From an uncultured Rhodocyclaceae bacterium (GTDB taxonomy: Bacteria > Pseudomonadota > Gammaproteobacteria > Burkholderiales > Ga0077523), in NCBI GenBank assembly GCA_964510915.1, contig CAZEDA010000001.1:4947-68946 (forward strand): 64,000 nucleotides of DNA. Reading direction: 5' to 3'. Numbering within the stretch: position 1 is the stretch's first letter; each line of letters opens with the position of its first letter. Positions 49,171-64,000 of the stretch are shown here, one piece after another. Position numbers and translations under genes: made by a program. The notes beneath the pieces were generated by a model. It saw only the letters and a program-made list of their open reading frames with translations. It had not been told where the DNA came from and did not search any database.

Positions 49171-52100
49171 ATGGCAGCAATCCGCATCCGCTCGATGTAC
49201 CGTCGCCGCATCAGCGGCCTGATGAACGCGCTGCTCGATCGCTTCTGGGATGGCTGGGACGGCCCCACCCGCGTGCGGCCTGGAGCCTTGCCTGGCAGGG
49301 CGCACTTCGAACCGCTCGAACCCAAGGTACTGCTGAGCGCCGACCTGCTTCCCGGGACGCCCCTCAGTTTCACGGACGCGGACGGCACACTCGTCACCGT
49401 GACCCTTTCAGGCAGCGGCTCGGGCGTTCTGGACGACACGGGCGGCAACGCGAGCCTCACTCTCCAGGGCAACGACCTGACGACCCGCGTCGTGATCGGC
49501 GCACAAGGCGGGGACGGACGGTTCCAGCTTTCGGGCCTGTCCGCCTCCGGACGCAATCTCGGCGCGATCGTCGCGCCCAACGCTGACCTCACCGGCGTCA
49601 TCCGGCTGGACGGACATCTCGGTGAACTGTCCCTTCGCGCCGCGCAGGGTGCGTCCACGGTGCATGCCGCGTCGGTGGGAACCTTGTCCGTCGCCGCAGA
49701 TTTCACGGCGGGCTTCGAACTGACCGGCCCCGATGCGGGACTCGCACTGACGCGCGCCACGATCGGCGGGGTGCTTTCCGGCGCATGGAACGTTCAGGGG
49801 CGTTCCGGGAGCCTCAAGGCCGGGGAGGTCGATGCCGCGTGGACTGGCGCGTTCGGCGACCCGCTGACGTCTCTCACGACCGTCGGAGATTTCCACGGGA
49901 CGGCCTATCTGCCGTCGCTGCTGCAGCTGACCGTCGGCGGCGCCCTGTCCGGCGCGACTCTGGTGGTGGGCGCCGATCTCGGGTCGGATGGTGCGCTCGG
50001 CGGCGCGGGAACGCGCGCCGACAGCTTCTCCACCGGCAATCTCTCGCGCGTCCGCGTCAATGGTGCCGTGGTTGACTCGACGATCCGGGTGGGCGTGGAC
50101 CCGGTGAATGGCGTGTTCGACGACGGCAATGACGCTGTGCTGCCCGGTGGGCGCATCCAGGAATTCCTCGTCGGGGGCGCGCTGACCGGCAGCAGCATCA
50201 TCGCCGCGACCCTGCCTCAGCAGGTTCGTGTTCAGGGCAGTCTCGTCTCGACCGCCACGCTCTCGGCCTTCCGAACCGCCGCACTCGACAAGGCGGCGCC
50301 ATCGCTCGTAGCGTCTCTCGCCAGCGATACGGGGGCCTCTTCGACAGACCGGCTCACCGCGGATCCGACCGTATCCGGGCGCGTCACCGATCTCGGTGCT
50401 GTGACTGGTCTGACTCTGTCGTTCCAGGGCCGCGACGTGGACGTGAGCCAGGCCCTCAATACGGACGGCACTTTTCTGCTGACTCGCGGCGCCATCGAAG
50501 CCGCGCTCGGCACGACGCTGACCGACGGCGCTATCGCGCTCGGATTGCGCGCGCGGGACGCGGGGGGCAATTTCTCGAATGCGGTGACGGTCGCTTTCGA
50601 ACTGGACACGGCAGCGCCCGACCTGCTTTCGTTCGGCGTTGTCAGCGCAGATGCGGTCGGCGGCGACAGTGCAAAGGCAGCGGCGGCAACCGTGGTGCTG
50701 CGCGGCGAGGGCACCGCCGGTGCGACCGTGTCGTACGCGGGGCAGAACGTCCTGGTGGGATCCGGCGGTGTGTTCGCGCTGCCCGGCGTCGGACTCGTGC
50801 TGGGCGACAACGCCATCACCCTGACGATCCGGGACCTCGCCGGCAACACGGACAGCCTCACCCGCACGATCACGCGAGTCGCCCGTACGCAGGCAGATCC
50901 GATTCTGGTGTGGAACGACATTGCGCTGCGTGCGGTTCAACTCGATGTGTCGGACCCTCCCGTCGCGACTCGTGCGTTGGCGATGGTCAGCCTTGCCCAG
51001 TACGACGCGCTTGCCGCCATCGAAGGGACGGCGGCGTACCTCGTCCAGCGGACCGTGTCCGGGCCGGTCTCCGCGGCGGCTGCGACGGCGGCTGCGGCGC
51101 ATCGCGTGCTCTCCCGGATCTATCCGGCGCAGCAGGCTGTGTTCGACGACGCCCTTTCGAACGATCTCGCGGCGATCGACGACGGTGCCGCGAAGGACAG
51201 CGGGATCGCCCTCGGCCTCGCCATCGCCGATGCGATCCTTGCCCTGCGGGCGAACGACGGATCGGAAGACTTCGTCTCGTATGACGGCAGTACGGAACTC
51301 GGCAAGTGGCGGCCGACCGGCCCCGCCTTCGATGTCGCCGACGTGCCGCACTGGGCGAGCGTCGAGCCCTTCGCGCTGTCATCTCCCGGCCAATTCCGTC
51401 CGGTGGCGCCGCCAGCGCTGGATTCCGCGGCCTACGCTGCGGCGGTGGAAGAGGTCAAGCGTCTCGGAAGCGCGACCAGCACCCAGAGAACGGCGGATCA
51501 GACCCAGATCGCGCTCTTCTGGGCGGACGGCAAGGGCAGCTTCACCCCGCCCGGACACTGGAATCAGATTGCGAGCGAGGTTGCCCGCTCCCGGGGAAGC
51601 AGCCTGACCGACAACGCCCGGCTCTTCGCGCAACTCAACGTGGCACTGGCCGACACCGCCATCGCCTGCTGGGACGCCAAGTACACGTACGGGCTGTGGC
51701 GGCCCGAGACGGCGATTCAGAACGCCGATCTGGATGGCAATGCGGGTACGACCGTCGATGCGGCGTGGCGGCCTCTGCTGCTCACGCCGCCCCATCCCGA
51801 GTACGTGTCCGGGCATTCGAGTTTCAGTCGTGCCGCGGCGACCGTCCTCGCGTCCCACTTCGGAGACGACACGACGTTCTCCACGACCAGTGCCACGCTG
51901 CCCGGCGTCACGAGGACCTTCTCGAGCTTTACCGAGGCGGCCGGCGAAGCCGGTCGCAGCCGCATCTATGGCGGCATCCATTACGAGTTCACGAACCAGG
52001 CGGGTCAGGTGCTCGGCGCGCAGGTCGCCAATGCCGTGCTCGCGCGCTTCGCGCTGTCTGGCGATTCCCAGGCGCCTGCCATTCCGCTGGGCGATACGCC

Positions 52101-55100
52101 CGCGGTGACGAACACCAACGTCACGCTGCGCGGCCAGGTGCTCGACAACCTGTCCGGCGTGGCGTCTGCGGAGTTCCGGATCGATGGAGGAGCCCTTCAG
52201 ACGCTGTCGCTCGACGCGAACGGCGGCTTCACGATCACCACGGCGCTGCCGACCGATGGCAGTGCCGACGGCGCACACACGATCACCATCGTTGCGCGTG
52301 ACGCCGCCGGAAATGCGAATGCCGGCGTGACGCGCGGATTCACGCTCGATACCAGAGCGCCGACGATCACGCTGCCGAGCCTTCCGGACGGTGCGGCATT
52401 GGGCGCAACGAGCCGGCTGACCGGCACGGCCGACCCCACGGGCACCACGCTGACGCAGCTCAGCTACCGCATCGACGGCGGCGTGAGCCGCACGCTTGCC
52501 TTCGATGCGGCCACGGGAGCATTCGACGAATCCTTACCCTTCGGCAACCTCGACGTGGGCGACCACACGCTGGTACTCACCGCACGCGACGCCGGCGGCA
52601 ACCTCGCCACACTCACCCGTACCGTCAAGGTCGAAGCGCTCGCGCCGCTGACGGTCACCAGTCTGACGCCGACCGAAGGCTCCGGCGATGTCGGCGTCAC
52701 GGTCCGCCCGCAGGTGCGCTTCTCGCGTGCGGTGAATCTGTCGACGCTGACCGCCGACTCGTTCTTCGCCACCGGGCCTGACGGCAGCAAGCTTGATGCT
52801 ACGGTCGTGCCGGCTAGCGACGGCACCTACGCGTGGCTGTTCTTCACGAACCCGATGCCCGGTGGCTCTCGGGTCACGCTGCATGTCGACGGTTCGAAGA
52901 TTCGCGGCGCGGCGGACGGCACCTTCCTGGATGCCGACGGCAATGGCACCGCGGGCGGCACCTTGACCCAGAGCTTCACGACCGTGAGCCGCACTGCAGT
53001 GGCAGGGACGAAGCTGGTAGGGAAGGTCGTCGATCCCGGGGCGGACCTCGAGCCCATGACCTTCGACGACATCCGCCGCGGCCCGGATGGCGTGATCCAT
53101 ACCGCCGATGACGTGTTCCTGCTGCCCATCGCGCACGCGAAGGTGTTCATCCTCGGACAGGAAGACCGGTTCGTCTTCACCGACGCCGCGGGAAACTTCG
53201 AACTGACCGACGTCCCCGCCGGCACGGTGAAGGTCGCGATCGACGGCCGCACGGCGACGAACGCGCCGTCGGGCGTGTTCTTCCCCGAAATGGTGATGGA
53301 CGTCGAACTGCGCCCGGGTGTCGTGAATACCGTCATGAGCGGCATGGGGTCGGACGCCGAGCGTGCGGCCAATCTCGATCGTCGCGAGGTGTACCTGCCA
53401 CGCATCCCGACGAGTTCGCTTCAGGAAGTGAGTGATACCGCGACGACGGTGATCACGGTGAGCGATGCGAAATCCGCACCTCAGCTGAGCGAGCAGGAAA
53501 GGGCCGCGCTCACGCTCACTGTCCAGCCGGGCAGCGCGATCGGTGAGAACGGCAAGGCGCTCGACAACGTGCAGATCGGGATCAGCACCGTACCGCCGGA
53601 ACTCGTCCGCGACATGCTGCCTCCGGGTGTGCTGCAGCACACGTTCGACATCACGATCCAGGCGCCGGGGGTGGCCACGTTCGCGGAGCCGCTGCAGATC
53701 ACTTTCCCCAACGTCTTCAACGCAGCGCCGGGCACGAAGCTGAACATCCTGAGTTTCGATCACACGACCGGCCGGCTCGTGATCAACGGGACGGGCACGG
53801 TATCGGCGGACGGCCTGACCGTGGTGTCCGACCCCGACTCCGGCATTCGGGCGCCGGGATGGCATTCGATGACCCCTCCGGGGTCGCCCGGAGGCGGAAC
53901 GCCTCCGCCCCCGATTCCCTGCGATCCGCCCGGCGGACCGATTCAGCCGACCGAAAGCTTCCTGACTCTCGGCATGATCACCGGCGGCGAAACGGCCTCG
54001 ACGCTGCTGGATCTCGCCGCGAACCTTCCTTCGCCGGGACCGGGAGAGCAGGTCAACGTCGACATCAAGCTGGATGGCGTCGCGGCCAAGTTCCTCAAGA
54101 TCAACGGATCGACGTCTTTCGCCAGAAACGGCTCGACGCCTTCAGGCACGATCGTGAGCGAGCTGAAGACCCGCGCCTACAGCGAGTTGCCCGGCGGTCT
54201 CAACTCGTTCAACGAGCCCACCGTCTTCGGTGGCGTCGTGACTGTGACGGTCACGCGGTCGGCGGCCGACCCGTCCCATTCCGATTGCCCGGTCAAGAGT
54301 GCCGTCGAGGTCCGGAAGTACATCGTCTATCGCTACATAGACTCGCGCAGTGGCGAGACACCCACGGTGTACGAGTTCAACGATGCCCTGGTGAATACGA
54401 ACCCGAAAGCCGAGCCGTTCAAGCAGGCGTTCAAGTTCGAATTCAGCACGGAAGCCGAAGGCACCGTGACTCTCGCCAGCGAGTCCGGGGCGGCGGGCCC
54501 GAAGCCCTTCACGCTGGCCCGGTCGGGTGGTTCGGCCACGGTCACTTTCAGTCCTCCCGCGGTCCAGTCGTTCGGTGACGAGATCCGCATCCAGCCCCAG
54601 AAGGACCCGACGAGAGTCGTCGCCGGTCCTTCCCTGAACGGCAAGGGAACGGAAGCCCAGGTCATCAGCCTGAACCGGGCGGAGCTGATCGCCGAGCTGA
54701 CCCAGGCCGTCGAGTCCGACATGCCCTTCTACTGGTTGTCGGGGCTGCTGACCAGTCAGCTCACGACCGACGGCGTCGCGGACCCGGACAAGATCGGTCA
54801 GCTCGCCGATCTGGCGATCGGTTATGCCGTTTCCTACTTCAATCCCGTCGGCAGCGCCGTGAAGTTCAGTCTCGGGAACGCGGGGGGTCTCGTCATGGAC
54901 TATTCGCCAGGGGTCGATCCCGGGGCGTCACTCCTGCTCGGGACCGTGGGGATCGTCTACGGAAAGGCGGTCGAGGGGATCGACAACGTCGACGCGGCCT
55001 ATGGCGTGCTGAAACAGCAGGGCACCAGGAGCAGCGACTGGATGCGCTACCACTTCGTGGAGGCATTCAACACGACTCGCGAAAATCGGGTGGAGGTCTA

Positions 55101-58100
55101 CGTCAGGAATCTGTTCGCGGTGCCGCTGGTAGAGCAGACCGTGACCTTGAACGGGTTCGCGAACAAGATCGGATACGTGATCGCGCACGAGGCCGGTCAC
55201 GCCCTGGGCCTGCATCACGCATTCAGCCAGTCAGGCGCCATCGACTCGTCGGACGTGATGAGCTACGAGGATCCCGCCGGCCTGGCGTTCCGTGCGTCCC
55301 TGCCGAGCCTGGAGCTCGGTCTGGATCTGGCGCCGGCCGCGCGCCTCCAGGGTGCGTCGAACTACCTCGTCCAGTGGATCAACGGCGGCCCGGCGGCCAT
55401 CGGCGGTGGAAGCGGCCGCGATCCGGACACGGATCTGCCGCTCATCGGCCCCTTCGCTCCGATCCTCGCGATCGGCACGCCCGACAACATCGTGCTTTCG
55501 GATGTCGATCTCGGCGTGCTGACGGTCGGTAGCGCGACGCCGACGAAACTGTTCGTCAGAAACCTCGGGAGCGATCCCCTCACGGTCCGTTCTCTGGTCG
55601 TCGCCGGAGAGACCGTCGGCGGCACGTTGTCCGCGGATCCGATTGCGCCGGGTGACACTCGCGAGCTGTCCGTCGACCTCACGAGCCTGGCGCCCGGGCG
55701 CTACAACGACGCCATCCGCATCGAATACGGCAACGGAAGCACTCAGACCATCGCCTTCCGGTTTTCCGTCCAGTCGGCTGCACCTGCGGCCGTCACGGCA
55801 CTGAGCAACAACCTGGGTGCGACGAGTCTGGGTTCGTCGAGTGAGGGCGCGGTCGTGTCGGTGACGAACGAAGGCGCGCAGACGCTGACGATCACCTCCG
55901 CAGCTTTGCTCTCCGGGGAGGAATCTTTCAGGATCGTCGACTTCACGCCCCAGTCGCTCGGCTACGGCGAATCCGGCGAGATCAAGGTCCGCTTCGCGCC
56001 GACGACATTCGGCCTGACGCGCGGGCTGATCGAACTGACCACGAACGATCCCGCCCGTCCGAAGATCGTCCTGTCGGTGGTCGGCACGGGGGTGAGCGAC
56101 GAACGACAGTACCAATGGGGTGGCGATGCCATCGCCGTGACCACCGGAACAGGGGACGGTGCCAACACGCTGCGGACGATGAGCGATGCTGCGGGTCGTT
56201 TCGAAATCTTCCTCTCCGCCTCGACGGCGTACGAGGTGGGTGTCTTCGATTTCGAGTCGCAGTTGCTGGCGGTCGGCGGCGGCGTGACGGCTCCCCCCGG
56301 TTCGCCGACCAATCTCACCGCGGGCCTCGCCTTCGGCGCCAGCACGGCCGTCGACTCCGATTTCGACGGCCTTCCGGATGACATCGAACAGACGATCGGC
56401 ACGAACGCGGGTCGGAAGGATACCGACAACGACGGCATCGACGACTTCATCGAAGTGAAACAGGGGCTCGATCCGTCCGGCGGACGCAACGTACCGGTGG
56501 GCATCGTGGCTGCCACGCCACTGGCCGGCTCCGCAGAGGCAGTGGATGTCGTTGCGTCTGCGGCAGGCGGACCTGCTGTCGCTGCGGTTGTCGCGACCGG
56601 GAACGGCGGACTCGCCATCGTGGACGTTTCCGCGTTCGACAGTCCCGCGCTGCTGTCCCAGATCGATCTCGCGGGATTCAATGTGGGTGTCGCCATGGAC
56701 GCGACGCGTGGCGTCGCGGCCGTTGCCGGGAGCGGTGCCGGACTGCATCTGGTCAATGTCTCGAATCTGGCTTCGCCGGCCCTGATCCAGACGGTGGACC
56801 TCGGCGCTTCCGTTACTGCCGTGGCTCTGGGGGACGGCATTGCCTACGCGGCGTCCGGGCGCCGCGTCGTCGGTGTCGACTTGAACACCGGCGAGACGAG
56901 GTCGAGTGTCGACTTCGGTCTTGTGGGCGGCGCGGCTCTGGTGAGTCTCGTACGCGACGGCAATACGCTCTTCACGCTGGATGCGGATAACACGCTGCGC
57001 GCGATCGACATCGCGGGGGACGTTCTCACGCCGCGAGGTTCGATCGCCCTCGCGGTGGGTGGCGGAAAGCTCTTTGTGGGAGGCGGGACTGCCTACGTCG
57101 GTCGGGAAGACAGGTTCAATGGCGGCTTTTCGACAGTCGACGTTCGTGACCTGGGGAATCTTCGACTCCTGAGCGGTCCGGACGCCAACAACGTCGCCGG
57201 CGATGCCATCGTGGCGAACGGTTCGGGGCTTGCCGTCACGGTCGGGCAGATCGGGGGCGCCTTTGGCGCAAACGCGCTGGATGTTCTGAACGTCGCCGAT
57301 CCGACGAACACGGGTGTGGTGGTGACCCGGGTGAACCTGCCGGCAGCGCCGCGCGGCGTGGCCCTGGCCAATGGAATGGCCTTCGTTGCCGCGGGCGAGG
57401 CCGGTCTCCAGATCGTCAACTTCATCGGCTTCGATACGCAGGGAACCGAACCGGCTGTCTCGATTCAGGCCGACGCGATCGATGTCGATGCCGCTGCTGC
57501 GGGGACCCAGGTACTCGAAGGGCGTTCGGTTCGCGTGGTACCGACCGTCACCGACGACGTCCAGGTCCGGAACATCGAGCTGCTCGTCAACGGCGTCGTC
57601 GTGGCGACAGACGTCGCCTTTCCGTGGGAACTGTTCGCGCAGGTGCCCACCGTCGCGGCGGGTGGCAGCACGATGACGATCCAGGTCCGGGCCACGGACA
57701 CCGGTGGCAACGTCGGGCTGTCGAACATCGTCACGCTGGACGTGACGCCCGACACCTTCCCGCCGAAGGTGACCTCGGCGAGTGTTGCGGACGGTGAACG
57801 ACTCTTCTTCGTCCGCAGCATCGACATCGCGTTCGACGAGCCGATCGACACGGCCCTGCTGGCGGTCGGCGGCATGCATCTTGTCCGGGCCGGGGCCGAC
57901 GGGGCGTTCGACACTGCGGATGATGTGCCGCAGACCGTGCGTTTCGACACGCGCAGTTTCGGGCAGTCTCTCAGTGTGCTCGTCGACGATGTCCTGGCAC
58001 CGGGCGCGTACCGTCTCACGATCGATGCGGACATCGTCGCCGACATTGCCGGCAACACCATTGCCGCGCCGATCGTGCGCACCTTCAGCGTCAGACCGGC

Positions 58101-61100
58101 CAGTGACGTGAGGGCGGTGTCGGGCGCACCGGAGATCCCGACCGCGCCTGCCGCGAATCCCGGGCAGCAGATCGCCGTTGCCGTGCCGTTCGATCCGGCC
58201 ACCGCTCGCGCGCAGTTCAGTGTGATCGACGTCGCCGGGAACAGGACCACGCGGGTCGTTACGCCCGCACGTGCGGACCCGATTGCAGGCGTTGCCTATT
58301 TCACTGTTCCCCTGGACGCCGTGACCGGCGAGACCGTCGTGTTCTCGCTGGTCGGCGGCGTGAGGACGGACTTTCCGGATGGAACGTTTCCCCTCCAGAT
58401 CCTTCCCGTGATCACCGACGTGCAGGTGCAGAGCGTGTCGAGCGATGCGACGACGGCGACGGTACTGATCAGCGGGCTGGGGTTCGTGGAAGGCGGCGTC
58501 AGCGAGTACCGCTTCGGCACGACGATCGTTCCGGATCCCGGTGTGTCCGCCGGTCCGGATGTGCAGAGCCGGTTCGATGCTGTGCTGGGATTCGTGCCCA
58601 ACGCAGCGGTGAGCGTGGTGGTGCCCTTGATCGGTGGATCGTTCGGATCGATCAGCGTGAAGACGGGAGGGGGTACGAGCGCGCAGTACAGCGTGAGCGT
58701 GGATGCGATCGAGGCTGTGGCGCTGAGCGGAACGCCAGCCGATGCGGGGCAGGCCTCGGCGAACGCGGGGCAGGCGGTGGAGCTCAGGGGCAGTGGTCTG
58801 AGCGTGGGCACGGACGTGCTGCTGAGGTGGGTGGACAACAGTGGGGTGCAGCAGGTCACGGTGCTGAGTCCGGTGGCGGCGTCTGCGGACGGGACGAGAG
58901 CGACGCTGGTGTTGCCGTTGTACGCGAACGGGGCGTTCGGGCTGCAGGTGTTCGGTTCGGGGAGCCAGCCGATGCTGCAGGTGGTGCCGAAGCTGACGGG
59001 TGTCGAAGCCGATGGAAGGACGTTGCTGCTGGGCTCTGGGTTCGTGGAGGGGGCGACGGTGTACGGGTTTCCTGGCACGGCGGTGGCTGACACGGCCGGT
59101 GACGGGGGTGAAGTGGATGTGGGCTTCACGAGGGACTTCAGCGCGCAGAACGGAAGCGCGAGCCTGGGCGCGACGGCGTTGCCGAGGTACGGGTACGGGA
59201 GCGTGACGGTGAGCACGGCGGGCGGGACGAGCGCGGCGCTGGGGCTGGAGGCGCTGCGCACGAGCGTGACCGGGGTGTCGCTGGGGGATGTGGCGGCGGA
59301 TGCGCAGGGCCAGCTGTGGGTGAGCGACCAGGCCAATCCGGGGCATCTGCTGAAGGTCGATGCGGGCACTGGGCAGACGCTGCAGACGATCACGATGAGC
59401 GCGGCGTACGGGACGCAGTTCACGCAGAGCTACACGGGGCTGCAGGTGCTCAGAGGGACGATGAGGCTGGGGAGCACGGATGTGGGGCCGGGGAATCTGC
59501 TGGTGTTCAACGGCGCTCCGAACACGGACCGGGTGGTGGCGGTCAATCAGATAAGCGGGGTGGTGCTGGCGTCGCTGGCGCTGGCGCAGAACTACGATCT
59601 GACGGGAGCGGCGTACGACGAGGTGGGCAACCGGATCTACGTGGCGGCGGAGAGGGGCAACGCGATCGTGGTGGTGAACGCGCAGACGGGAGCGGAGGTG
59701 GAGCGGATCGCGGCGCCGTTCAGTGTGGCGGGCAACAGCGGGCTGGCGATCGATGCGGGGGCGAGGCGGCTGTGGGTGGGGTCGACCAGCGGGGGTGCGC
59801 AGCTGGTGGAGTACGCGATCGGAGCGGGAGGTGGGCTGACGGAGTTGAGGCGCATCGACACGAGGCCGCAGGGAGTGGACAGCGGTGAGATCACGGGGTT
59901 GAGTGTGGGGCCCGACGGGCGGCTGTATGTGGCCACCACGCAGGGCGTGGTCCACAGGATCGACACGACGCTGGACGCCAGCGCGGTGAAGCCGGCGACG
60001 CTCACGGGTGTGATCGGCACGGCCGGTGGCGGCGTGGCGGCCGATGCGACGAAGGCCTCGGCGAACGTCGGTGAGGTGATCGAGCTGACGGGGAGCAACT
60101 TCGGCGCCGGGACGCGGGTGCTGTTCGAGACGCGGGATGCCTCGGGGAGCACGGGGCTGTTCTCGGCCGCGCCGCTGGCGATCGATGAGTCGGGGACACG
60201 TCTGCAGGTGCGGGTGCCCGATCAGGCGACGACGGGGCTGGTGCGCGTGGTCAACCAGAGCACGGGCAACCTGGGGTTCAGTGGGTCGGAAGACGCGATC
60301 TACCGCGATGTCACGGTGAGCTTCACGGCGGGTGCGGATACGGCGACGGTGCGATTCGCGGACGGCGGCCTGCAGGGGCTGTTCGACGAGAGCTGGGGGA
60401 TCGATAACGTCGAGGTGCGGCAGGGCGCGACGCTCGTGTTTGCCGATGACTTCGAGTCGGGCAGCGCAGCGGCGGGGTGGGGCAGCCGCGTGGTCAACGC
60501 CGAGGAGCGTGCGGCCTTCAGCCGGTTCTCGGGGCGGTTCAGCAGCACGAGCCAGGCGCTGAGCCTGAGCGGTCTGACGGCGGGGCAGACGTACACGCTG
60601 AAGTTCGATCTGTACGTGCTCGATTCGTGGGACGGCAGCGCGCCGAGCGTGGGTCCGGATCAGTTCGAGGTGAGCGTGGACGGTGCGGTGCTGCTGCGCG
60701 AGAGCTTCGCGAACCGGACGGGCACGGCGAGTGCGCAGAGCTTCGGGGCGAGCGCGGGAGTGGCGCTGCAGATCGTGCCGACGCTGACGGCGATGAGCGG
60801 ACGTCCGGGAGGCGACGGCACGTTCACGCTGAGCGGCTCGGGGTTCATGGAAGGGGCGAGCACGGTGAGCGTGGGCGGCATGGCGTTCGTGGACACGGCA
60901 GCCAACGCGGGCCAGTTCCTGGACGTGAGCGGTACGCGCAACGACACGCTGAGCCTGGTGGCGCCGCGCACGCTGGACGGCCCGATCCGGGTGACGACGG
61001 CCGGCGGGTATGCGGAGCTGGCCGGACCGGTGTTCGCGCCGCAGCCGCCGTCGCTGTTCACGGGGATCGTGGCGAGCGCCGCGGCCGGGGTGGCGGCGGA

Positions 61101-64000
61101 TGCGACGAAGGCCTCCGCGGTGACCGGTCAGCTCATCGTGCTGCAGGGCCAGGGGTTCACCGGGAGCACGCTGGTGCAGTTCCAGGGGATCGACGACAGC
61201 GGCCGGGTGGGGACGATCACGACGACCGGGACGGCAGGCGCGGGCGGGACGACGCTGAGCGTGGCGGTGCCTGCGCTGGCGCGCACGGGGCTGGTGACGG
61301 TGCTGGGCAGCGGGACGGGAATCGGGTTGCAGGTGGTGCCGACGCTGCGGGCGCTGGGCGGGACGGTGGCGGCGGGCAACACGCTGGTGCTGGAGGGAAG
61401 CGGGCTGACGGCCGACGATCTGATCGTGAGCGTGGGCGGTCGTGCGGCCGGGACGTTCGAGGTGCGCACGCTGATCGACGGGACGGGGAGCAGTCCGGAT
61501 CAGCAGCTGCTGAGGGTGACGGTGCCCGCCGGGGTATCGGGCAGCGTGGTGACGGTGTCCACGGCCGGAGGCAGCTTCACGCTGAATCCCGGACTGGCGA
61601 TCAGCGCAGCCGCGCTCAGCGGCACAGCGGCGCAGGCGGGTGTGGCGGCGGCGAACACGGGTCAGACGATCACGCTGACGGGCGCGTTTGCGCCTGGCGA
61701 TCAGGTGGTGTTCACGACGATGGATACGACGGGCAACCTGACGACGCGCACGGTGGCGCCGGCGAATCTGGACGTGGCCGGCGGGACGCTGCAGGTGGTG
61801 GTGCCGGCCGATGCGGTGACGGGGCAGGTGCGTCTGGCGAGAAGCGCCACGGGGGCGCTGCTGCAGGTGGTGCCGACGGTGTCGGATGTGAGCATGAACG
61901 CGGGCGGTGTCTTCACGGGCGGCATTCTGACGATCGGGGGCAGCGGGTTCGCCGAAGGCACGACGGCGGTGCTGATGGGAGAGGTGCGCCTGGAGGACAC
62001 GAGCCGGACGACGGGCATCAACGTGTCGGGTTCCACGTCGCTGAGCCTGAGTGTGCCGGGCGCAGTGAGTGCGGGGCCGATCCTGGTGAGCACGGCGGGC
62101 GGGACGAGTGCGCCGCTGGGGCTGACGGTGAACCGGATCGTGGCGAGCGCGGGCAGCGGAACGGCGGCCGACGCGGGGCAGGCCTCGGCCAACCCCGGGC
62201 AGACGATCACGGTGGAAGGGGTCGGTCTGGACACGGGCACGGACGTGGTGTTCCGGGTGATCGAGCAGTTCGGCGGCGTGAGCGATGTGGTGGTGAAGCC
62301 GAGCGTGGTGAACACGGCGGGGACACAGGCGCAGGTGCTGGTGCCGCTCAACGCGATCAGTGGTGTGGTGCGGGTGGTGGGGGAGCGCAACGGCACGGAG
62401 CCGTTCCTGCAGATCCTGCCGGTGATCCGTGACGTGCAGGTGCAGAGCGTGTCGAGCGACGCGACGACGGCGACGGTGCTGATCAGCGGTCTGGGGTTCG
62501 TGGAAGGCGGCGTCAGCGAGTACCGCTTCGGCACGACGATCGTTCCGGATCCCGGTGTGTCCGCCGGTCCGGATGTGCAGAGCCGGTTCGATGCTGTGCT
62601 GGGATTCGTGCCCAACGCAGCGGTGAGCGTGGTGGTGCCCTTGATCGGTGGATCGTTCGGATCGATCAGCGTGAAGACGGGAGGGGGTACGAGCGCGCAG
62701 TACAGCGTGAGCGTGGATGCGATCGAGGCTGTGGCGCTGAGCGGAACGCCAGCCGATGCGGGGCAGGCCTCGGCGAACGCGGGGCAGGCGGTGGAGCTCA
62801 GGGGCAGTGGTCTGAGCGTGGGCACGGACGTGCTGCTGAGGTGGGTGGACAACAGTGGGGTGCAGCAGGTCACGGTGCTGAGTCCGGTGGCGGCGTCTGC
62901 GGACGGGACGAGAGCGACGCTGGTGTTGCCGTTGTACGCGAACGGGGCGTTCGGGCTGCAGGTGTTCGGTTCGGGGAGCCAGCCGATGCTGCAGGTGGTG
63001 CCGAAGCTGACGGGTGTCGAAGCCGATGGAAGGACGTTGCTGCTGGGCTCTGGGTTCGTGGAGGGGGCGACGGTGTACGGGTTTCCTGGCACGGCGGTGG
63101 CTGACACGGCCGGTGACGGGGGTGAAGTGGATGTGGGCTTCACGAGGGACTTCAGCGCGCAGAACGGAAGCGCGAGCCTGGGCGCGACGGCGTTGCCGAG
63201 GTACGGGTACGGGAGCGTGACGGTGAGCACGGCGGGCGGGACGAGCGCGGCGCTGGGGCTGGAGGCGCTGCGCACGAGCGTGACCGGGGTGTCGCTGGGG
63301 GATGTGGCGGCGGATGCGCAGGGCCAGCTGTGGGTGAGCGACCAGGCCAATCCGGGGCATCTGCTGAAGGTCGATGCGGGCACTGGGCAGACGCTGCAGA
63401 CGATCACGATGAGCGCGGCGTACGGGACGCAGTTCACGCAGAGCTACACGGGGCTGCAGGTGCTCAGAGGGACGATGAGGCTGGGGAGCACGGATGTGGG
63501 GCCGGGGAATCTGCTGGTGTTCAACGGCGCTCCGAACACGGACCGGGTGGTGGCGGTCAATCAGATAAGCGGGGTGGTGCTGGCGTCGCTGGCGCTGGCG
63601 CAGAACTACGATCTGACGGGAGCGGCGTACGACGAGGTGGGCAACCGGATCTACGTGGCGGCGGAGAGGGGCAACGCGATCGTGGTGGTGAACGCGCAGA
63701 CGGGAGCGGAGGTGGAGCGGATCGCGGCGCCGTTCAGTGTGGCGGGCAACAGCGGGCTGGCGATCGATGCGGGGGCGAGGCGGCTGTGGGTGGGGTCGAC
63801 CAGCGGGGGTGCGCAGCTGGTGGAGTACGCGATCGGAGCGGGAGGTGGGCTGACGGAGTTGAGGCGCATCGACACGAGGCCGCAGGGAGTGGACAGCGGT
63901 GAGATCACGGGGTTGAGTGTGGGGCCCGACGGGCGGCTGTATGTGGCCACCACGCAGGGCGTGGTCCACAGGATCACGATCTCGCCGCCGCCGGCACCGC
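49171..64000 (+). CDS. Giant secreted multidomain surface protein, at least 4943 aa, 3' end beyond the window (LEPR-XLL-type N-terminus; Ig-like, SbsA-Ig, choice-of-anchor-D/ASH-like, TSP3 Ca-binding, LVIVD, IPT/TIG and beta-propeller modules; embedded PAP2/VHPO-like and metzincin-like catalytic motifs)
   Basis: GGAGG at 49161-49165 precedes ATG 49171, and an in-frame stop lies at 49129. My own translation of this frame is sensible protein throughout, with no stop up to 64000. The track lists no closed ORF in this frame after 49171, which is consistent with one open-ended ORF. N-terminal motif HFEPLEPKVLLSADL. Confidence 0.9.
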   Translation, partial: MAAIRIRSMYRRRISGLMNALLDRFWDGWDGPTRVRPGALPGRAHFEPLEPKVLLSADLLPGTPLSFTDADGTLVTVTLSGSGSGVLDDTGGNASLTLQGNDLTTRVVIGAQGGDGRFQLSGLSASGRNLGAIVAPNADLTGVIRLDGHLGELSLRAAQGASTVHAASVGTLSVAADFTAGFELTGPDAGLALTRATIGGVLSGAWNVQGRSGSLKAGEVDAAWTGAFGDPLTSLTTVGDFHGTAYLPSLLQLTVGGALSGATLVVGADLGSDGALGGAGTRADSFSTGNLSRVRVNGAVVDSTIRVGVDPVNGVFDDGNDAVLPGGRIQEFLVGGALTGSSIIAATLPQQVRVQGSLVSTATLSAFRTAALDKAAPSLVASLASDTGASSTDRLTADPTVSGRVTDLGAVTGLTLSFQGRDVDVSQALNTDGTFLLTRGAIEAALGTTLTDGAIALGLRARDAGGNFSNAVTVAFELDTAAPDLLSFGVVSADAVGGDSAKAAAATVVLRGEGTAGATVSYAGQNVLVGSGGVFALPGVGLVLGDNAITLTIRDLAGNTDSLTRTITRVARTQADPILVWNDIALRAVQLDVSDPPVATRALAMVSLAQYDALAAIEGTAAYLVQRTVSGPVSAAAATAAAAHRVLSRIYPAQQAVFDDALSNDLAAIDDGAAKDSGIALGLAIADAILALRANDGSEDFVSYDGSTELGKWRPTGPAFDVADVPHWASVEPFALSSPGQFRPVAPPALDSAAYAAAVEEVKRLGSATSTQRTADQTQIALFWADGKGSFTPPGHWNQIASEVARSRGSSLTDNARLFAQLNVALADTAIACWDAKYTYGLWRPETAIQNADLDGNAGTTVDAAWRPLLLTPPHPEYVSGHSSFSRAAATVLASHFGDDTTFSTTSATLPGVTRTFSSFTEAAGEAGRSRIYGGIHYEFTNQAGQVLGAQVANAVLARFALSGDSQAPAIPLGDTPAVTNTNVTLRGQVLDNLSGVASAEFRIDGGALQTLSLDANGGFTITTALPTDGSADGAHTITIVARDAAGNANAGVTRGFTLDTRAPTITLPSLPDGAALGATSRLTGTADPTGTTLTQLSYRIDGGVSRTLAFDAATGAFDESLPFGNLDVGDHTLVLTARDAGGNLATLTRTVKVEALAPLTVTSLTPTEGSGDVGVTVRPQVRFSRAVNLSTLTADSFFATGPDGSKLDATVVPASDGTYAWLFFTNPMPGGSRVTLHVDGSKIRGAADGTFLDADGNGTAGGTLTQSFTTVSRTAVAGTKLVGKVVDPGADLEPMTFDDIRRGPDGVIHTADDVFLLPIAHAKVFILGQEDRFVFTDAAGNFELTDVPAGTVKVAIDGRTATNAPSGVFFPEMVMDVELRPGVVNTVMSGMGSDAERAANLDRREVYLPRIPTSSLQEVSDTATTVITVSDAKSAPQLSEQERAALTLTVQPGSAIGENGKALDNVQIGISTVPPELVRDMLPPGVLQHTFDITIQAPGVATFAEPLQITFPNVFNAAPGTKLNILSFDHTTGRLVINGTGTVSADGLTVVSDPDSGIRAPGWHSMTPPGSPGGGTPPPPIPCDPPGGPIQPTESFLTLGMITGGETASTLLDLAANLPSPGPGEQVNVDIKLDGVAAKFLKINGSTSFARNGSTPSGTIVSELKTRAYSELPGGLNSFNEPTVFGGVVTVTVTRSAADPSHSDCPVKSAVEVRKYIVYRYIDSRSGETPTVYEFNDALVNTNPKAEPFKQAFKFEFSTEAEGTVTLASESGAAGPKPFTLARSGGSATVTFSPPAVQSFGDEIRIQPQKDPTRVVAGPSLNGKGTEAQVISLNRAELIAELTQAVESDMPFYWLSGLLTSQLTTDGVADPDKIGQLADLAIGYAVSYFNPVGSAVKFSLGNAGGLVMDYSPGVDPGASLLLGTVGIVYGKAVEGIDNVDAAYGVLKQQGTRSSDWMRYHFVEAFNTTRENRVEVYVRNLFAVPLVEQTVTLNGFANKIGYVIAHEAGHALGLHHAFSQSGAIDSSDVMSYEDPAGLAFRASLPSLELGLDLAPAARLQGASNYLVQWINGGPAAIGGGSGRDPDTDLPLIGPFAPILAIGTPDNIVLSDVDLGVLTVGSATPTKLFVRNLGSDPLTVRSLVVAGETVGGTLSADPIAPGDTRELSVDLTSLAPGRYNDAIRIEYGNGSTQTIAFRFSVQSAAPAAVTALSNNLGATSLGSSSEGAVVSVTNEGAQTLTITSAALLSGEESFRIVDFTPQSLGYGESGEIKVRFAPTTFGLTRGLIELTTNDPARPKIVLSVVGTGVSDERQYQWGGDAIAVTTGTGDGANTLRTMSDAAGRFEIFLSASTAYEVGVFDFESQLLAVGGGVTAPPGSPTNLTAGLAFGASTAVDSDFDGLPDDIEQTIGTNAGRKDTDNDGIDDFIEVKQGLDPSGGRNVPVGIVAATPLAGSAEAVDVVASAAGGPAVAAVVATGNGGLAIVDVSAFDSPALLSQIDLAGFNVGVAMDATRGVAAVAGSGAGLHLVNVSNLASPALIQTVDLGASVTAVALGDGIAYAASGRRVVGVDLNTGETRSSVDFGLVGGAALVSLVRDGNTLFTLDADNTLRAIDIAGDVLTPRGSIALAVGGGKLFVGGGTAYVGREDRFNGGFSTVDVRDLGNLRLLSGPDANNVAGDAIVANGSGLAVTVGQIGGAFGANALDVLNVADPTNTGVVVTRVNLPAAPRGVALANGMAFVAAGEAGLQIVNFIGFDTQGTEPAVSIQADAIDVDAAAAGTQVLEGRSVRVVPTVTDDVQVRNIELLVNGVVVATDVAFPWELFAQVPTVAAGGSTMTIQVRATDTGGNVGLSNIVTLDVTPDTFPPKVTSASVADGERLFFVRSIDIAFDEPIDTALLAVGGMHLVRAGADGAFDTADDVPQTVRFDTRSFGQSLSVLVDDVLAPGAYRLTIDADIVADIAGNTIAAPIVRTFSVRPASDVRAVSGAPEIPTAPAANPGQQIAVAVPFDPATARAQFSVIDVAGNRTTRVVTPARADPIAGVAYFTVPLDAVTGETVVFSLVGGVRTDFPDGTFPLQILPVITDVQVQSVSSDATTATVLISGLGFVEGGVSEYRFGTTIVPDPGVSAGPDVQSRFDAVLGFVPNAAVSVVVPLIGGSFGSISVKTGGGTSAQYSVSVDAIEAVALSGTPADAGQASANAGQAVELRGSGLSVGTDVLLRWVDNSGVQQVTVLSPVAASADGTRATLVLPLYANGAFGLQVFGSGSQPMLQVVPKLTGVEADGRTLLLGSGFVEGATVYGFPGTAVADTAGDGGEVDVGFTRDFSAQNGSASLGATALPRYGYGSVTVSTAGGTSAALGLEALRTSVTGVSLGDVAADAQGQLWVSDQANPGHLLKVDAGTGQTLQTITMSAAYGTQFTQSYTGLQVLRGTMRLGSTDVGPGNLLVFNGAPNTDRVVAVNQISGVVLASLALAQNYDLTGAAYDEVGNRIYVAAERGNAIVVVNAQTGAEVERIAAPFSVAGNSGLAIDAGARRLWVGSTSGGAQLVEYAIGAGGGLTELRRIDTRPQGVDSGEITGLSVGPDGRLYVATTQGVVHRIDTTLDASAVKPATLTGVIGTAGGGVAADATKASANVGEVIELTGSNFGAGTRVLFETRDASGSTGLFSAAPLAIDESGTRLQVRVPDQATTGLVRVVNQSTGNLGFSGSEDAIYRDVTVSFTAGADTATVRFADGGLQGLFDESWGIDNVEVRQGATLVFADDFESGSAAAGWGSRVVNAEERAAFSRFSGRFSSTSQALSLSGLTAGQTYTLKFDLYVLDSWDGSAPSVGPDQFEVSVDGAVLLRESFANRTGTASAQSFGASAGVALQIVPTLTAMSGRPGGDGTFTLSGSGFMEGASTVSVGGMAFVDTAANAGQFLDVSGTRNDTLSLVAPRTLDGPIRVTTAGGYAELAGPVFAPQPPSLFTGIVASAAAGVAADATKASAVTGQLIVLQGQGFTGSTLVQFQGIDDSGRVGTITTTGTAGAGGTTLSVAVPALARTGLVTVLGSGTGIGLQVVPTLRALGGTVAAGNTLVLEGSGLTADDLIVSVGGRAAGTFEVRTLIDGTGSSPDQQLLRVTVPAGVSGSVVTVSTAGGSFTLNPGLAISAAALSGTAAQAGVAAANTGQTITLTGAFAPGDQVVFTTMDTTGNLTTRTVAPANLDVAGGTLQVVVPADAVTGQVRLARSATGALLQVVPTVSDVSMNAGGVFTGGILTIGGSGFAEGTTAVLMGEVRLEDTSRTTGINVSGSTSLSLSVPGAVSAGPILVSTAGGTSAPLGLTVNRIVASAGSGTAADAGQASANPGQTITVEGVGLDTGTDVVFRVIEQFGGVSDVVVKPSVVNTAGTQAQVLVPLNAISGVVRVVGERNGTEPFLQILPVIRDVQVQSVSSDATTATVLISGLGFVEGGVSEYRFGTTIVPDPGVSAGPDVQSRFDAVLGFVPNAAVSVVVPLIGGSFGSISVKTGGGTSAQYSVSVDAIEAVALSGTPADAGQASANAGQAVELRGSGLSVGTDVLLRWVDNSGVQQVTVLSPVAASADGTRATLVLPLYANGAFGLQVFGSGSQPMLQVVPKLTGVEADGRTLLLGSGFVEGATVYGFPGTAVADTAGDGGEVDVGFTRDFSAQNGSASLGATALPRYGYGSVTVSTAGGTSAALGLEALRTSVTGVSLGDVAADAQGQLWVSDQANPGHLLKVDAGTGQTLQTITMSAAYGTQFTQSYTGLQVLRGTMRLGSTDVGPGNLLVFNGAPNTDRVVAVNQISGVVLASLALAQNYDLTGAAYDEVGNRIYVAAERGNAIVVVNAQTGAEVERIAAPFSVAGNSGLAIDAGARRLWVGSTSGGAQLVEYAIGAGGGLTELRRIDTRPQGVDSGEITGLSVGPDGRLYVATTQGVVHRITISPPPAP
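50893..52053 (+). other. PAP2 / vanadium-dependent haloperoxidase-like domain embedded in the giant protein
   Basis: Three motifs occur in the correct order: KYTYGLWRP (K-x6-RP, 51679-51705), PEYVSGHS (SGH, 51796-51819) and SRIYGGIHY (SR-x5-H, 51958-51984). Confidence 0.75.
55186..55218 (+). other. Metzincin zinc-binding motif HEAGHALGLHH inside the giant protein
   Basis: A perfect HExxHxxGxxH, followed 13 residues later by VMSY, a candidate Met-turn. Confidence 0.65.
58417..59961 (+). repeat. Intragenic direct repeat, copy A (period 4014 bp)
   Basis: Aligns base-for-base with 62431-63975. I found differences only at 58446, 58464 and 58476. From 58477 to 59961 every block I compared is identical. 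Confidence 0.9.
62431..63975 (+). repeat. Intragenic direct repeat, copy B
   Basis: The offset is exactly 4014 bp (1338 codons, in frame). Identical shadow ORFs appear in the track (58827/62841, 59000/63014, 59316/63330). The copies diverge after 63975 (RIDTTLDAS in A, RITISPPPAP in B). Confidence 0.9.

Follow-up and report, generated by a model that had tools for sequence, protein, structure and literature searches.

A vanadium haloperoxidase-type domain in a giant Ig-rich protein of an uncultured Rhodocyclaceae bacterium

The giant reading frame and its catalytic domain

The window analysed here is a stretch of 64,000 nucleotides from an uncultured Rhodocyclaceae bacterium (GenBank assembly GCA_964510915.1, contig CAZEDA010000001.1, positions 4,947 to 68,946 of the forward strand), and all coordinates below refer to it. 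The window contains a giant open reading frame (ORF) that runs into its end, and within the encoded protein lies a domain of the vanadium haloperoxidase (VHPO) type, which is the subject of this report. The reading frame is open from 49132, and the best start is the ATG at 49171, with a GGAGG just upstream. The GC content at third codon positions (GC3) is 0.84 in the giant ORF, the sequence having 68% GC overall, and this coding-type composition together with a frame that is free of stops over 14.8 kb counts against a pseudogene or an assembly chimera. A first-pass annotation, made from the letters alone, had placed a VHPO or PAP2-type domain between immunoglobulin (Ig)-like modules of a protein longer than 4,900 residues, and the three motifs on which it relied are found in the frame and order it gave; the Ig-like modules are there as well, a Big_13 before the domain and a Big_7 and a Big_5 after it, in a frame of at least 4,943 codons. 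The features concerned are the following, with residues numbered along the giant protein.

49171–63999, forward strand: giant ORF of at least 4,943 amino acids (aa), from the ATG to the window end without a stop; the 3' end lies outside the window
50287–53895, forward strand: conserved cassette, aa 373–1575, with the order Ig (Big_13), Ig, VHPO, Ig (Big_7), Ig, Big_5, beta-sandwich array
50893–52053, forward strand: VHPO-type catalytic domain of two helical bundles, aa 575–961 (387 residues), supported by Pfam, PDB search, AlphaFold2 and Foldseek
51679–51705, forward strand: motif 1, K-x6-RP (KYTYGLWRP), with Lys837 and Arg844; Trp834 is located 3 residues before the Lys
51787–51819, forward strand: motif 2, PPHPEYVSGHS, with Ser880-Gly881-His882; His875 is located 7 residues before the catalytic His
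51958–51993, forward strand: motif 3, SRIYGGIHYEFT, with Arg931, His937 (predicted to bind vanadate) and Thr941 at His+4

PAP2 (PF01569) is the sole Pfam model above its cut-off for the domain, with 35.0 bits on the isolated domain and 31.2 bits in the whole protein against a gathering cut-off of 27.2. When all PDB sequences were searched with phmmer the best match was the vanadium iodoperoxidase (VIPO) of Zobellia (4CIT/4USZ), with E=1.3e-46 over residues 17–379 of the 387 in the query, followed by the fungal chloroperoxidase and other VHPOs at about 1e-13, and no acid phosphatase was among the matches at E≤1. The PAP2 and 4CIT scores are far beyond chance. An AlphaFold2 model of the domain, built with 50 homologues, has a mean predicted local distance difference test (pLDDT) score of 95.9 and a predicted template modelling (pTM) score of 0.94, and in Foldseek it superposes on 4CIT/4USZ with a query-normalised TM-score (TMq) of 0.85–0.87 and a root mean square deviation of 2.7–3.2 Å. 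The fungal vanadium chloroperoxidase (VCPO) follows with TMq 0.84–0.85, NapH1-type and other bacterial VHPOs with 0.71–0.76, and the class A acid phosphatases, which match the C-terminal bundle only, with about 0.38. Since the homology to 4CIT is full-length and the model superposes on the solved structures, the region is a complete two-bundle VHPO-type domain and more than a PAP2 core. The N-terminal helices (WNDIALRAV...) begin at 50911, and the VHPO-like character ascribed to them at first pass is upheld by the same two comparisons.

Relatives and distribution of the fusion

In a first protein search the domain had at least 3,870 homologues, mostly stand-alone proteins of 400–470 aa, and in about one quarter of the best 120 it is joined to Big_13, CARDB, RTX, DUF4114 or another extracellular module. 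That search listed nothing above about 1,500 aa, and giant relatives were recovered through genome loci and through a library of cluster representatives. In a scan of GTDB with one genome per species and an alignment of the Ig-VHPO-Ig cassette as query, more than 600 matches were obtained and the best 80 loci examined; in 24 of these the match extends over most or the whole of the 844-aa cassette and lies in an ORF longer than 1,000 aa, and the same fusion, for which a search in other genomes had been proposed at first pass, is thereby present in at least 24 species genomes of GTDB. Burkholderiales provide the best relatives in GTDB, with 64–70% identity in the domain. Very long ORFs with the domain are found in Pseudoduganella sp. 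LjRoot289 (>5,064 aa), Ramlibacter paludis XY19 (>4,673 aa), a Rhodocyclaceae metagenome-assembled genome (MAG; >5,556 aa) and a cyanobacterial MAG (>4,525 aa), and complete frames of 2,633–3,934 aa in Burkholderiales, Hyphomicrobiaceae, Aliishimia, Gemmataceae, other Planctomycetota and Acaryochloris.

When the entire giant protein of the window was used as tblastn query, a colinear core corresponding to aa 373–1575 is seen at 47–64% identity in the giants at the homologous loci L002–L020 and L025, and a second conserved block at about aa 2334–2980. Orthologues that are nearly full-length are present in Pseudoduganella sp. LjRoot289 (L002) and the Rhodocyclaceae MAG (L020), where 4,506 and 4,420 respectively of the 4,943 aa are aligned. 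A HMMER search with the 844-aa core against 1.84 billion cluster representatives (50% identity) gave 3,041 matches at E≤1e-30, and among the best 150 of these 97 are at least 2,000 aa long, 72 at least 3,000 and 13 at least 5,000, the longest having 7,181 aa. The 97 representatives of at least 2,000 aa are those referred to as giants in the residue counts below. Giants are encoded by Beta- and Alphaproteobacteria, Planctomycetota and Cyanobacteria from soil, freshwater, wastewater and marine habitats, and two of the orthologue hosts, Pseudoduganella sp. LjRoot289 and Ramlibacter paludis XY19, are isolates and not MAGs. Judged from these comparisons, a large, diverse and uncharacterised family of giant proteins in several phyla is built around the VHPO domain as its constant core. 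The description of the domain as an unusual insert is therefore abandoned, since no other part of these widespread giants is as well conserved as the cassette. Its description as new is partly retained: full-text searches found no paper on giant or Ig-rich bacterial proteins with an internal VHPO domain, but fragments of such proteins already carry automatic NCBI annotations, either as 'Ig-like domain-containing protein' or as 'phosphatase PAP2 family protein'.

In a rough neighbour-joining tree most embedded copies fall into one clade in which Proteobacteria and Planctomycetota are mixed, and L021, L024 and L025, which are cyanobacterial and one Phycisphaerales giant, are placed outside it, so that the fusion may have arisen either in one event or in several. 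The closest database relative (P0001, at 8948–10828 of L001) is a 626-aa open frame with 81% identity in the domain. It was considered as a small ancestral form and rejected, as its start falls midway through an Ig domain and it adjoins a gene on the opposite strand and is located on a long-read metagenome contig of 1x coverage; it resembles a remnant or a misassembled copy more than a true short form.

Two further parts of the giant protein are shared with many of these relatives:

49303–49365, forward strand: LEPR-XLL motif (…FEPLEPKVLLSADL…), aa 45–65, NCBIfam NF012209 with 35.4 bits against a cut-off of 17
52984–53895, forward strand: region following Big_5, aa 1272–1575, highly conserved and all-beta, with an AlphaFold2 pLDDT of 84.7

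The LEPR-XLL motif is also N-terminal in the giants at L002–L004, L007, L009, L011, L014, L020 and L025 and occurs in 35 of the 97 giants, the hosts of the proteins that share it being Beta- and Alphaproteobacteria and Planctomycetota; nothing substantive on LEPR-XLL proteins was found in the full-text literature, where the term is mentioned only in passing. In the alphaproteobacterial giants at L013 and L018 (Hyphomicrobiaceae and Aliishimia) the LEPR-XLL N-terminus is replaced by RTX-type GGxGxD repeats at both ends of the protein, indicating that the same cassette may be delivered by different export routes. Four or more RTX repeat cores are present in 8 of the 97 giants.

Before the catalytic domain Pfam places Big_13 at aa 377–480 and, below threshold, a Glucodextran_B-like Ig module at aa 500–569, and after it Big_7 at aa 979–1040 and Big_5 at aa 1159–1271. 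The region at aa 1272–1575 is conserved at least as well as the enzyme domain, with 55–72% identity to most homologues and extremes of 43% and 81%. PDB sequence searches with it gave nothing significant, and the Foldseek matches are generic pilin, CnaB or carboxypeptidase-regulatory-like beta-sandwiches only, with TM-scores of about 0.2.

Active site and predicted function

The residues of the PAP2 signature, namely Lys, Arg, Pro, Ser-Gly-His, Ser-Arg and His, are all present in the domain, with Thr at the position of the final Asp. In the numbering of the domain, with that of the giant protein in brackets, the active-site residues are Trp260 (834), Lys263 (837), Arg270-Pro271 (844–845), Ser306-Gly307-His308 (880–882), Ser356-Arg357 (930–931) and His363 (937), and these are invariant in 50 database homologues and in 77 GTDB copies. 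Among the 97 giants the Lys, the Arg, the Gly-His, the second Arg and the last His are each kept in 96–97, Ser306 in 94 and the Trp in 92. That a vanadate site is conserved almost totally in proteins otherwise so divergent points to selection on catalysis. The Lys, Arg, Ser-Gly-His, Arg and His that were taken to be catalytic at first pass align with their counterparts in VCPO, on which the AlphaFold2 model superposes; from this alignment and general knowledge we take the VCPO equivalents to be Trp350, Lys353, Arg360, Ser402-Gly403-His404, Arg490 and His496.

The first-pass annotation had also remarked on the Thr four residues after the last His, where classic PAP2 proteins and VCPO have Asp. 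The Thr is there but it is not an anomaly, because the position varies across the subfamily: Ser is found in 62 of the giants, Ala in 24, Thr and Asp in 5 each and Glu in 1. The Zobellia enzyme, which is active, presumably has Ala at this position. In class A phosphatases the nucleophilic His is paired in a charge relay with the Asp of H-x3-D, and a Thr at His+4 weakens the classical phosphatase signature. A second variable site is position 301 of the domain, His875 in the giant protein, where 41 of the 97 giants have His and 55 have Phe; in the GTDB copies His predominates in the proteobacterial and in some of the Pirellula sequences. From the alignment and the offset to the catalytic His we assume that it corresponds to Phe397 of VCPO and to a His in algal bromoperoxidases, and the residue in the Zobellia enzyme is presumably Phe353. 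Whether the His/Phe split affects halide preference is a matter of speculation.

Of the characterised systems the VIPO of Zobellia galactanivorans (Zg-VIPO1) is closest to the domain, with full-length homology, an identity of 30–31% in the structural alignment and a two-bundle monomer fold, and the motifs C-W-D-x-K…R-P, P-E-Y-x-S-G-H-S and S-R-x-Y-G-G-I-H-Y are identical in the two. Zg-VIPO1 is, however, a stand-alone protein (PDB chain of 458 aa), whereas the domain described here occupies aa 575–961 of more than 4,943 aa. The VCPO of Curvularia inaequalis (1VNC/1IDQ) has the same fold (TMq 0.84), its Lys353, Arg360, Ser402-Gly403-His404, Arg490 and His496 align and so does its N-terminal helix, W-N…A-R-A-L-A-M, but the identity is about 21%, the enzyme has 609 aa with large insertions, and its residues at His+4 and at the site of His875 are Asp and Phe respectively. 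The class A acid phosphatases (PhoN, PhoC, EB-NSAP; 1EOI, 2A96, 7F17) have the PAP2 motifs and the C-terminal bundle in common with the domain, with target-normalised TM-scores (TMt) of 0.55–0.68, but they are proteins of about 210–230 aa with a single bundle, and they keep the Asp of H-x3-D where the domain has Thr. Both in sequence and in the model the domain thus appears to have the fold and the active site of a VHPO and not the make-up of a class A acid phosphatase, because the latter cover about 38% of the model, are not found by sequence and differ at His+4. The VHPO of Rhodopirellula baltica (RhobaVHPO, UniProt Q7UVW2), which was expressed as a single recombinant protein, clusters with the VIPOs and has been shown both to chlorinate and to brominate in the monochlorodimedone (MCD) assay (PMC13519999), indicating that the VIPO-related bacterial branch holds true haloperoxidases beyond Zobellia.

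The domain is consequently predicted to be catalytically competent and to belong to the VHPO branch of the PAP2 superfamily, with the monomeric Zobellia iodoperoxidase as its closest solved relative. Since it is closest to proven haloperoxidases, has a nearly fully conserved vanadate site and is related to the active RhobaVHPO, we regard it as probable, and as the most likely reading of sequence and model, that the domain is a vanadate-dependent haloperoxidase tethered outside the cell. Vanadate would then be bound covalently to His937 and held by Lys837, Arg844, Ser880, Gly881 and Arg931, hydrogen peroxide would convert it to peroxovanadate with His882 as acid/base, and a halide entering the pocket of Trp834 and His875 would be oxidised to hypohalous acid. 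The very long stalk of Ig modules and propellers should tether the enzyme so that the oxidant is released at or near the cell surface, where its possible effects are the halogenation or cross-linking of matrix or organic matter, or damage to competitors.

Several observations weigh against this assignment. The models for the fungal enzyme, VCPO_2nd (PF22778) and VCPO_N (PF17897), reach 20.3 bits against a cut-off of 27 and 16.5 against 29.3, so that of the family thresholds invoked at first pass the PAP2 one is passed and the two VCPO ones are not; both of these models, like DUF6851, nevertheless match the expected part of the domain below cut-off. The VCPO models of Pfam are fungal-centred, and PF22778 is listed on nearly all the homologues in precomputed annotations. 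No NCBIfam model matches in a scan of the domain. Some VHPO homologues, such as NapH3 (8CXL), do not halogenate. No enzyme producing hydrogen peroxide, no vanadate transporter and no secretion system is located beside the gene, in the window or at the homologous loci. Nor was a classical signal peptide seen by eye at the N-terminus, and as the C-terminus lies beyond the window export is presumed only on the strength of the domain content and the LEPR-XLL N-terminus. Ig-like, TSP3-like, LVIVD and NHL propeller domains together with LEPR-XLL do fit a secreted or surface protein.

The active site itself is common to VHPOs and PAP2 phosphatases, with the same catalytic residues in both classes of enzyme, and apo-VHPOs hydrolyse phosphate esters. 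The title of PDB entry 3BB0 describes a phosphate intermediate trapped in apo-chloroperoxidase catalysing a dephosphorylation. The domain might thus be a surface PAP2-type phosphatase in which His937 is the nucleophile, forms a phospho-histidine intermediate and frees phosphate from organic esters, as the PAP2 match would suggest and as the names given to relatives by NCBI and JGI imply ('phosphatase PAP2 family protein', 'membrane-associated phospholipid phosphatase'). We consider this unlikely, because the VHPOs resemble the domain far more in sequence and fold than any acid phosphatase does, it has their typical N-terminal helical bundle, the Asp of H-x3-D is not conserved in the subfamily, and the characterised members of the branch are haloperoxidases only (4CIT; PMC13519999). 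If the domain should prove to be a phosphatase, caution would be needed with sequence-based VHPO calls in metagenomes.

A module with the VHPO fold and some other chemistry, or none that halogenates, is less probable still: it could bind or sense oxyanions, or be similar to NapH3, and be kept mainly for its structure or for ligand binding. Homologues of that kind exist, and the strong conservation of aa 1272–1575 could mean that the cassette is selected for a function that does not involve halide, but it is hard to see why the seven residues of the vanadate site should be kept in nearly all of 97 divergent giants if no catalysis takes place there. That the motifs match by chance, or that the gene is a pseudogene or a chimera of a stand-alone VHPO gene and an adhesin gene, is effectively refuted by the open frame with coding-type GC3 and by the recurrence of the same colinear architecture in dozens of independent genomes, isolates included, and in the 97 giant representatives, even though a truncated copy is present on the 1x contig and a near-identical 1.6-kb repeat in the 3' part of the ORF could confuse assemblers.

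What is seen here is a known enzyme family in an uncharacterised, giant and presumably tethered context that is common in genomes. To our knowledge the characterised VHPOs are all free-standing soluble enzymes, and biocatalysis, algal halogen metabolism and the halogenation of natural products are the fields in which they have been studied. In animals, peroxidasin has a haloperoxidase domain flanked by Ig domains in a large protein of the extracellular matrix, where hypohalous acid is formed locally for matrix cross-linking; its fold is that of a heme peroxidase without homology to VHPO, and the resemblance is a functional analogy which may serve as a hypothesis and not as evidence. By this analogy we would tentatively suggest, with rather less confidence than for the domain as such, that the giant LEPR-XLL proteins are surface-tethered vanadium haloperoxidases spanning several phyla, and counterparts of peroxidasin and of the algal cell-wall VHPOs in function and not by ancestry. 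Hypohalous acid made at the envelope could in that case be used for matrix cross-linking or antagonism, or lead to an unspecific halogenation of organic matter, and natural organohalogens of soil and fresh water could come in part from these giants, a bacterial source that has been overlooked. It has been proposed that the formation of organohalogens and microbial antagonism in soil are driven by extracellular chloroperoxidases (PMC4926216), and an active domain would point to bacterial enzymes capable of this chemistry of natural organohalogen formation and would offer a naturally scaffolded haloperoxidase.

Other modules, neighbouring genes and repeats

The part of the giant protein downstream of the cassette contains a putative zinc site:

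55186–55266, forward strand: metzincin-type HEAGHALGLHH followed 11 residues on by the Met-turn DVMSY (location of the motif)

The met-zincin, Reprolysin and Matrixin models of Pfam match the protein below threshold only, and HExxHxxGxxH is found somewhere in 24 of the 97 giants; zinc motif and Met-turn might possibly form a second catalytic domain, a protease. An Asp-rich stretch at 56068–56500, around aa 2417–2440 (DSDFDGLPDD…DTDNDGIDDFIE), gives a sub-threshold match to bacterial TSP3 calcium-binding repeats and is located just before an LVIVD match. The LVIVD and NHL matches in the protein are borderline and consist of single repeats, which suggests beta-propellers. Further features downstream are a CarboxypepD_reg-like module (below cut-off), Ig modules of the HYDIN/ASH type and many repeated Ig/IPT-like modules, and 'adhesin-like' seems, from the predicted domains, a fair label for the architecture.

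The neighbouring genes in the window, upstream of the giant ORF, are unrelated to it and encode RlmJ, a DRL oxidoreductase, a Mem_trans transporter, a beta-lactamase-like protein, an alginate-export-like porin and glycosyltransferases. None of them recurs next to the homologous giants, and the genes flanking the giants at L002, L007, L011, L014 and L025 are unrelated to one another.

The giant ORF contains a direct repeat in frame, about 1.6 kb long, at 58396–59984 and 62410–63998, with 98.5% identity between the copies and a period of 4,014 nt (1,338 codons), the second copy reaching the window end. It may be either a recent duplication of an internal super-repeat or an assembly hazard. In the repetitive 3' part of the ORF, at 58001–64000, the GC skew rises to between +0.23 and +0.29 from about 0 elsewhere, which probably reflects the coding of Gly/Val/Ala-rich repeats.

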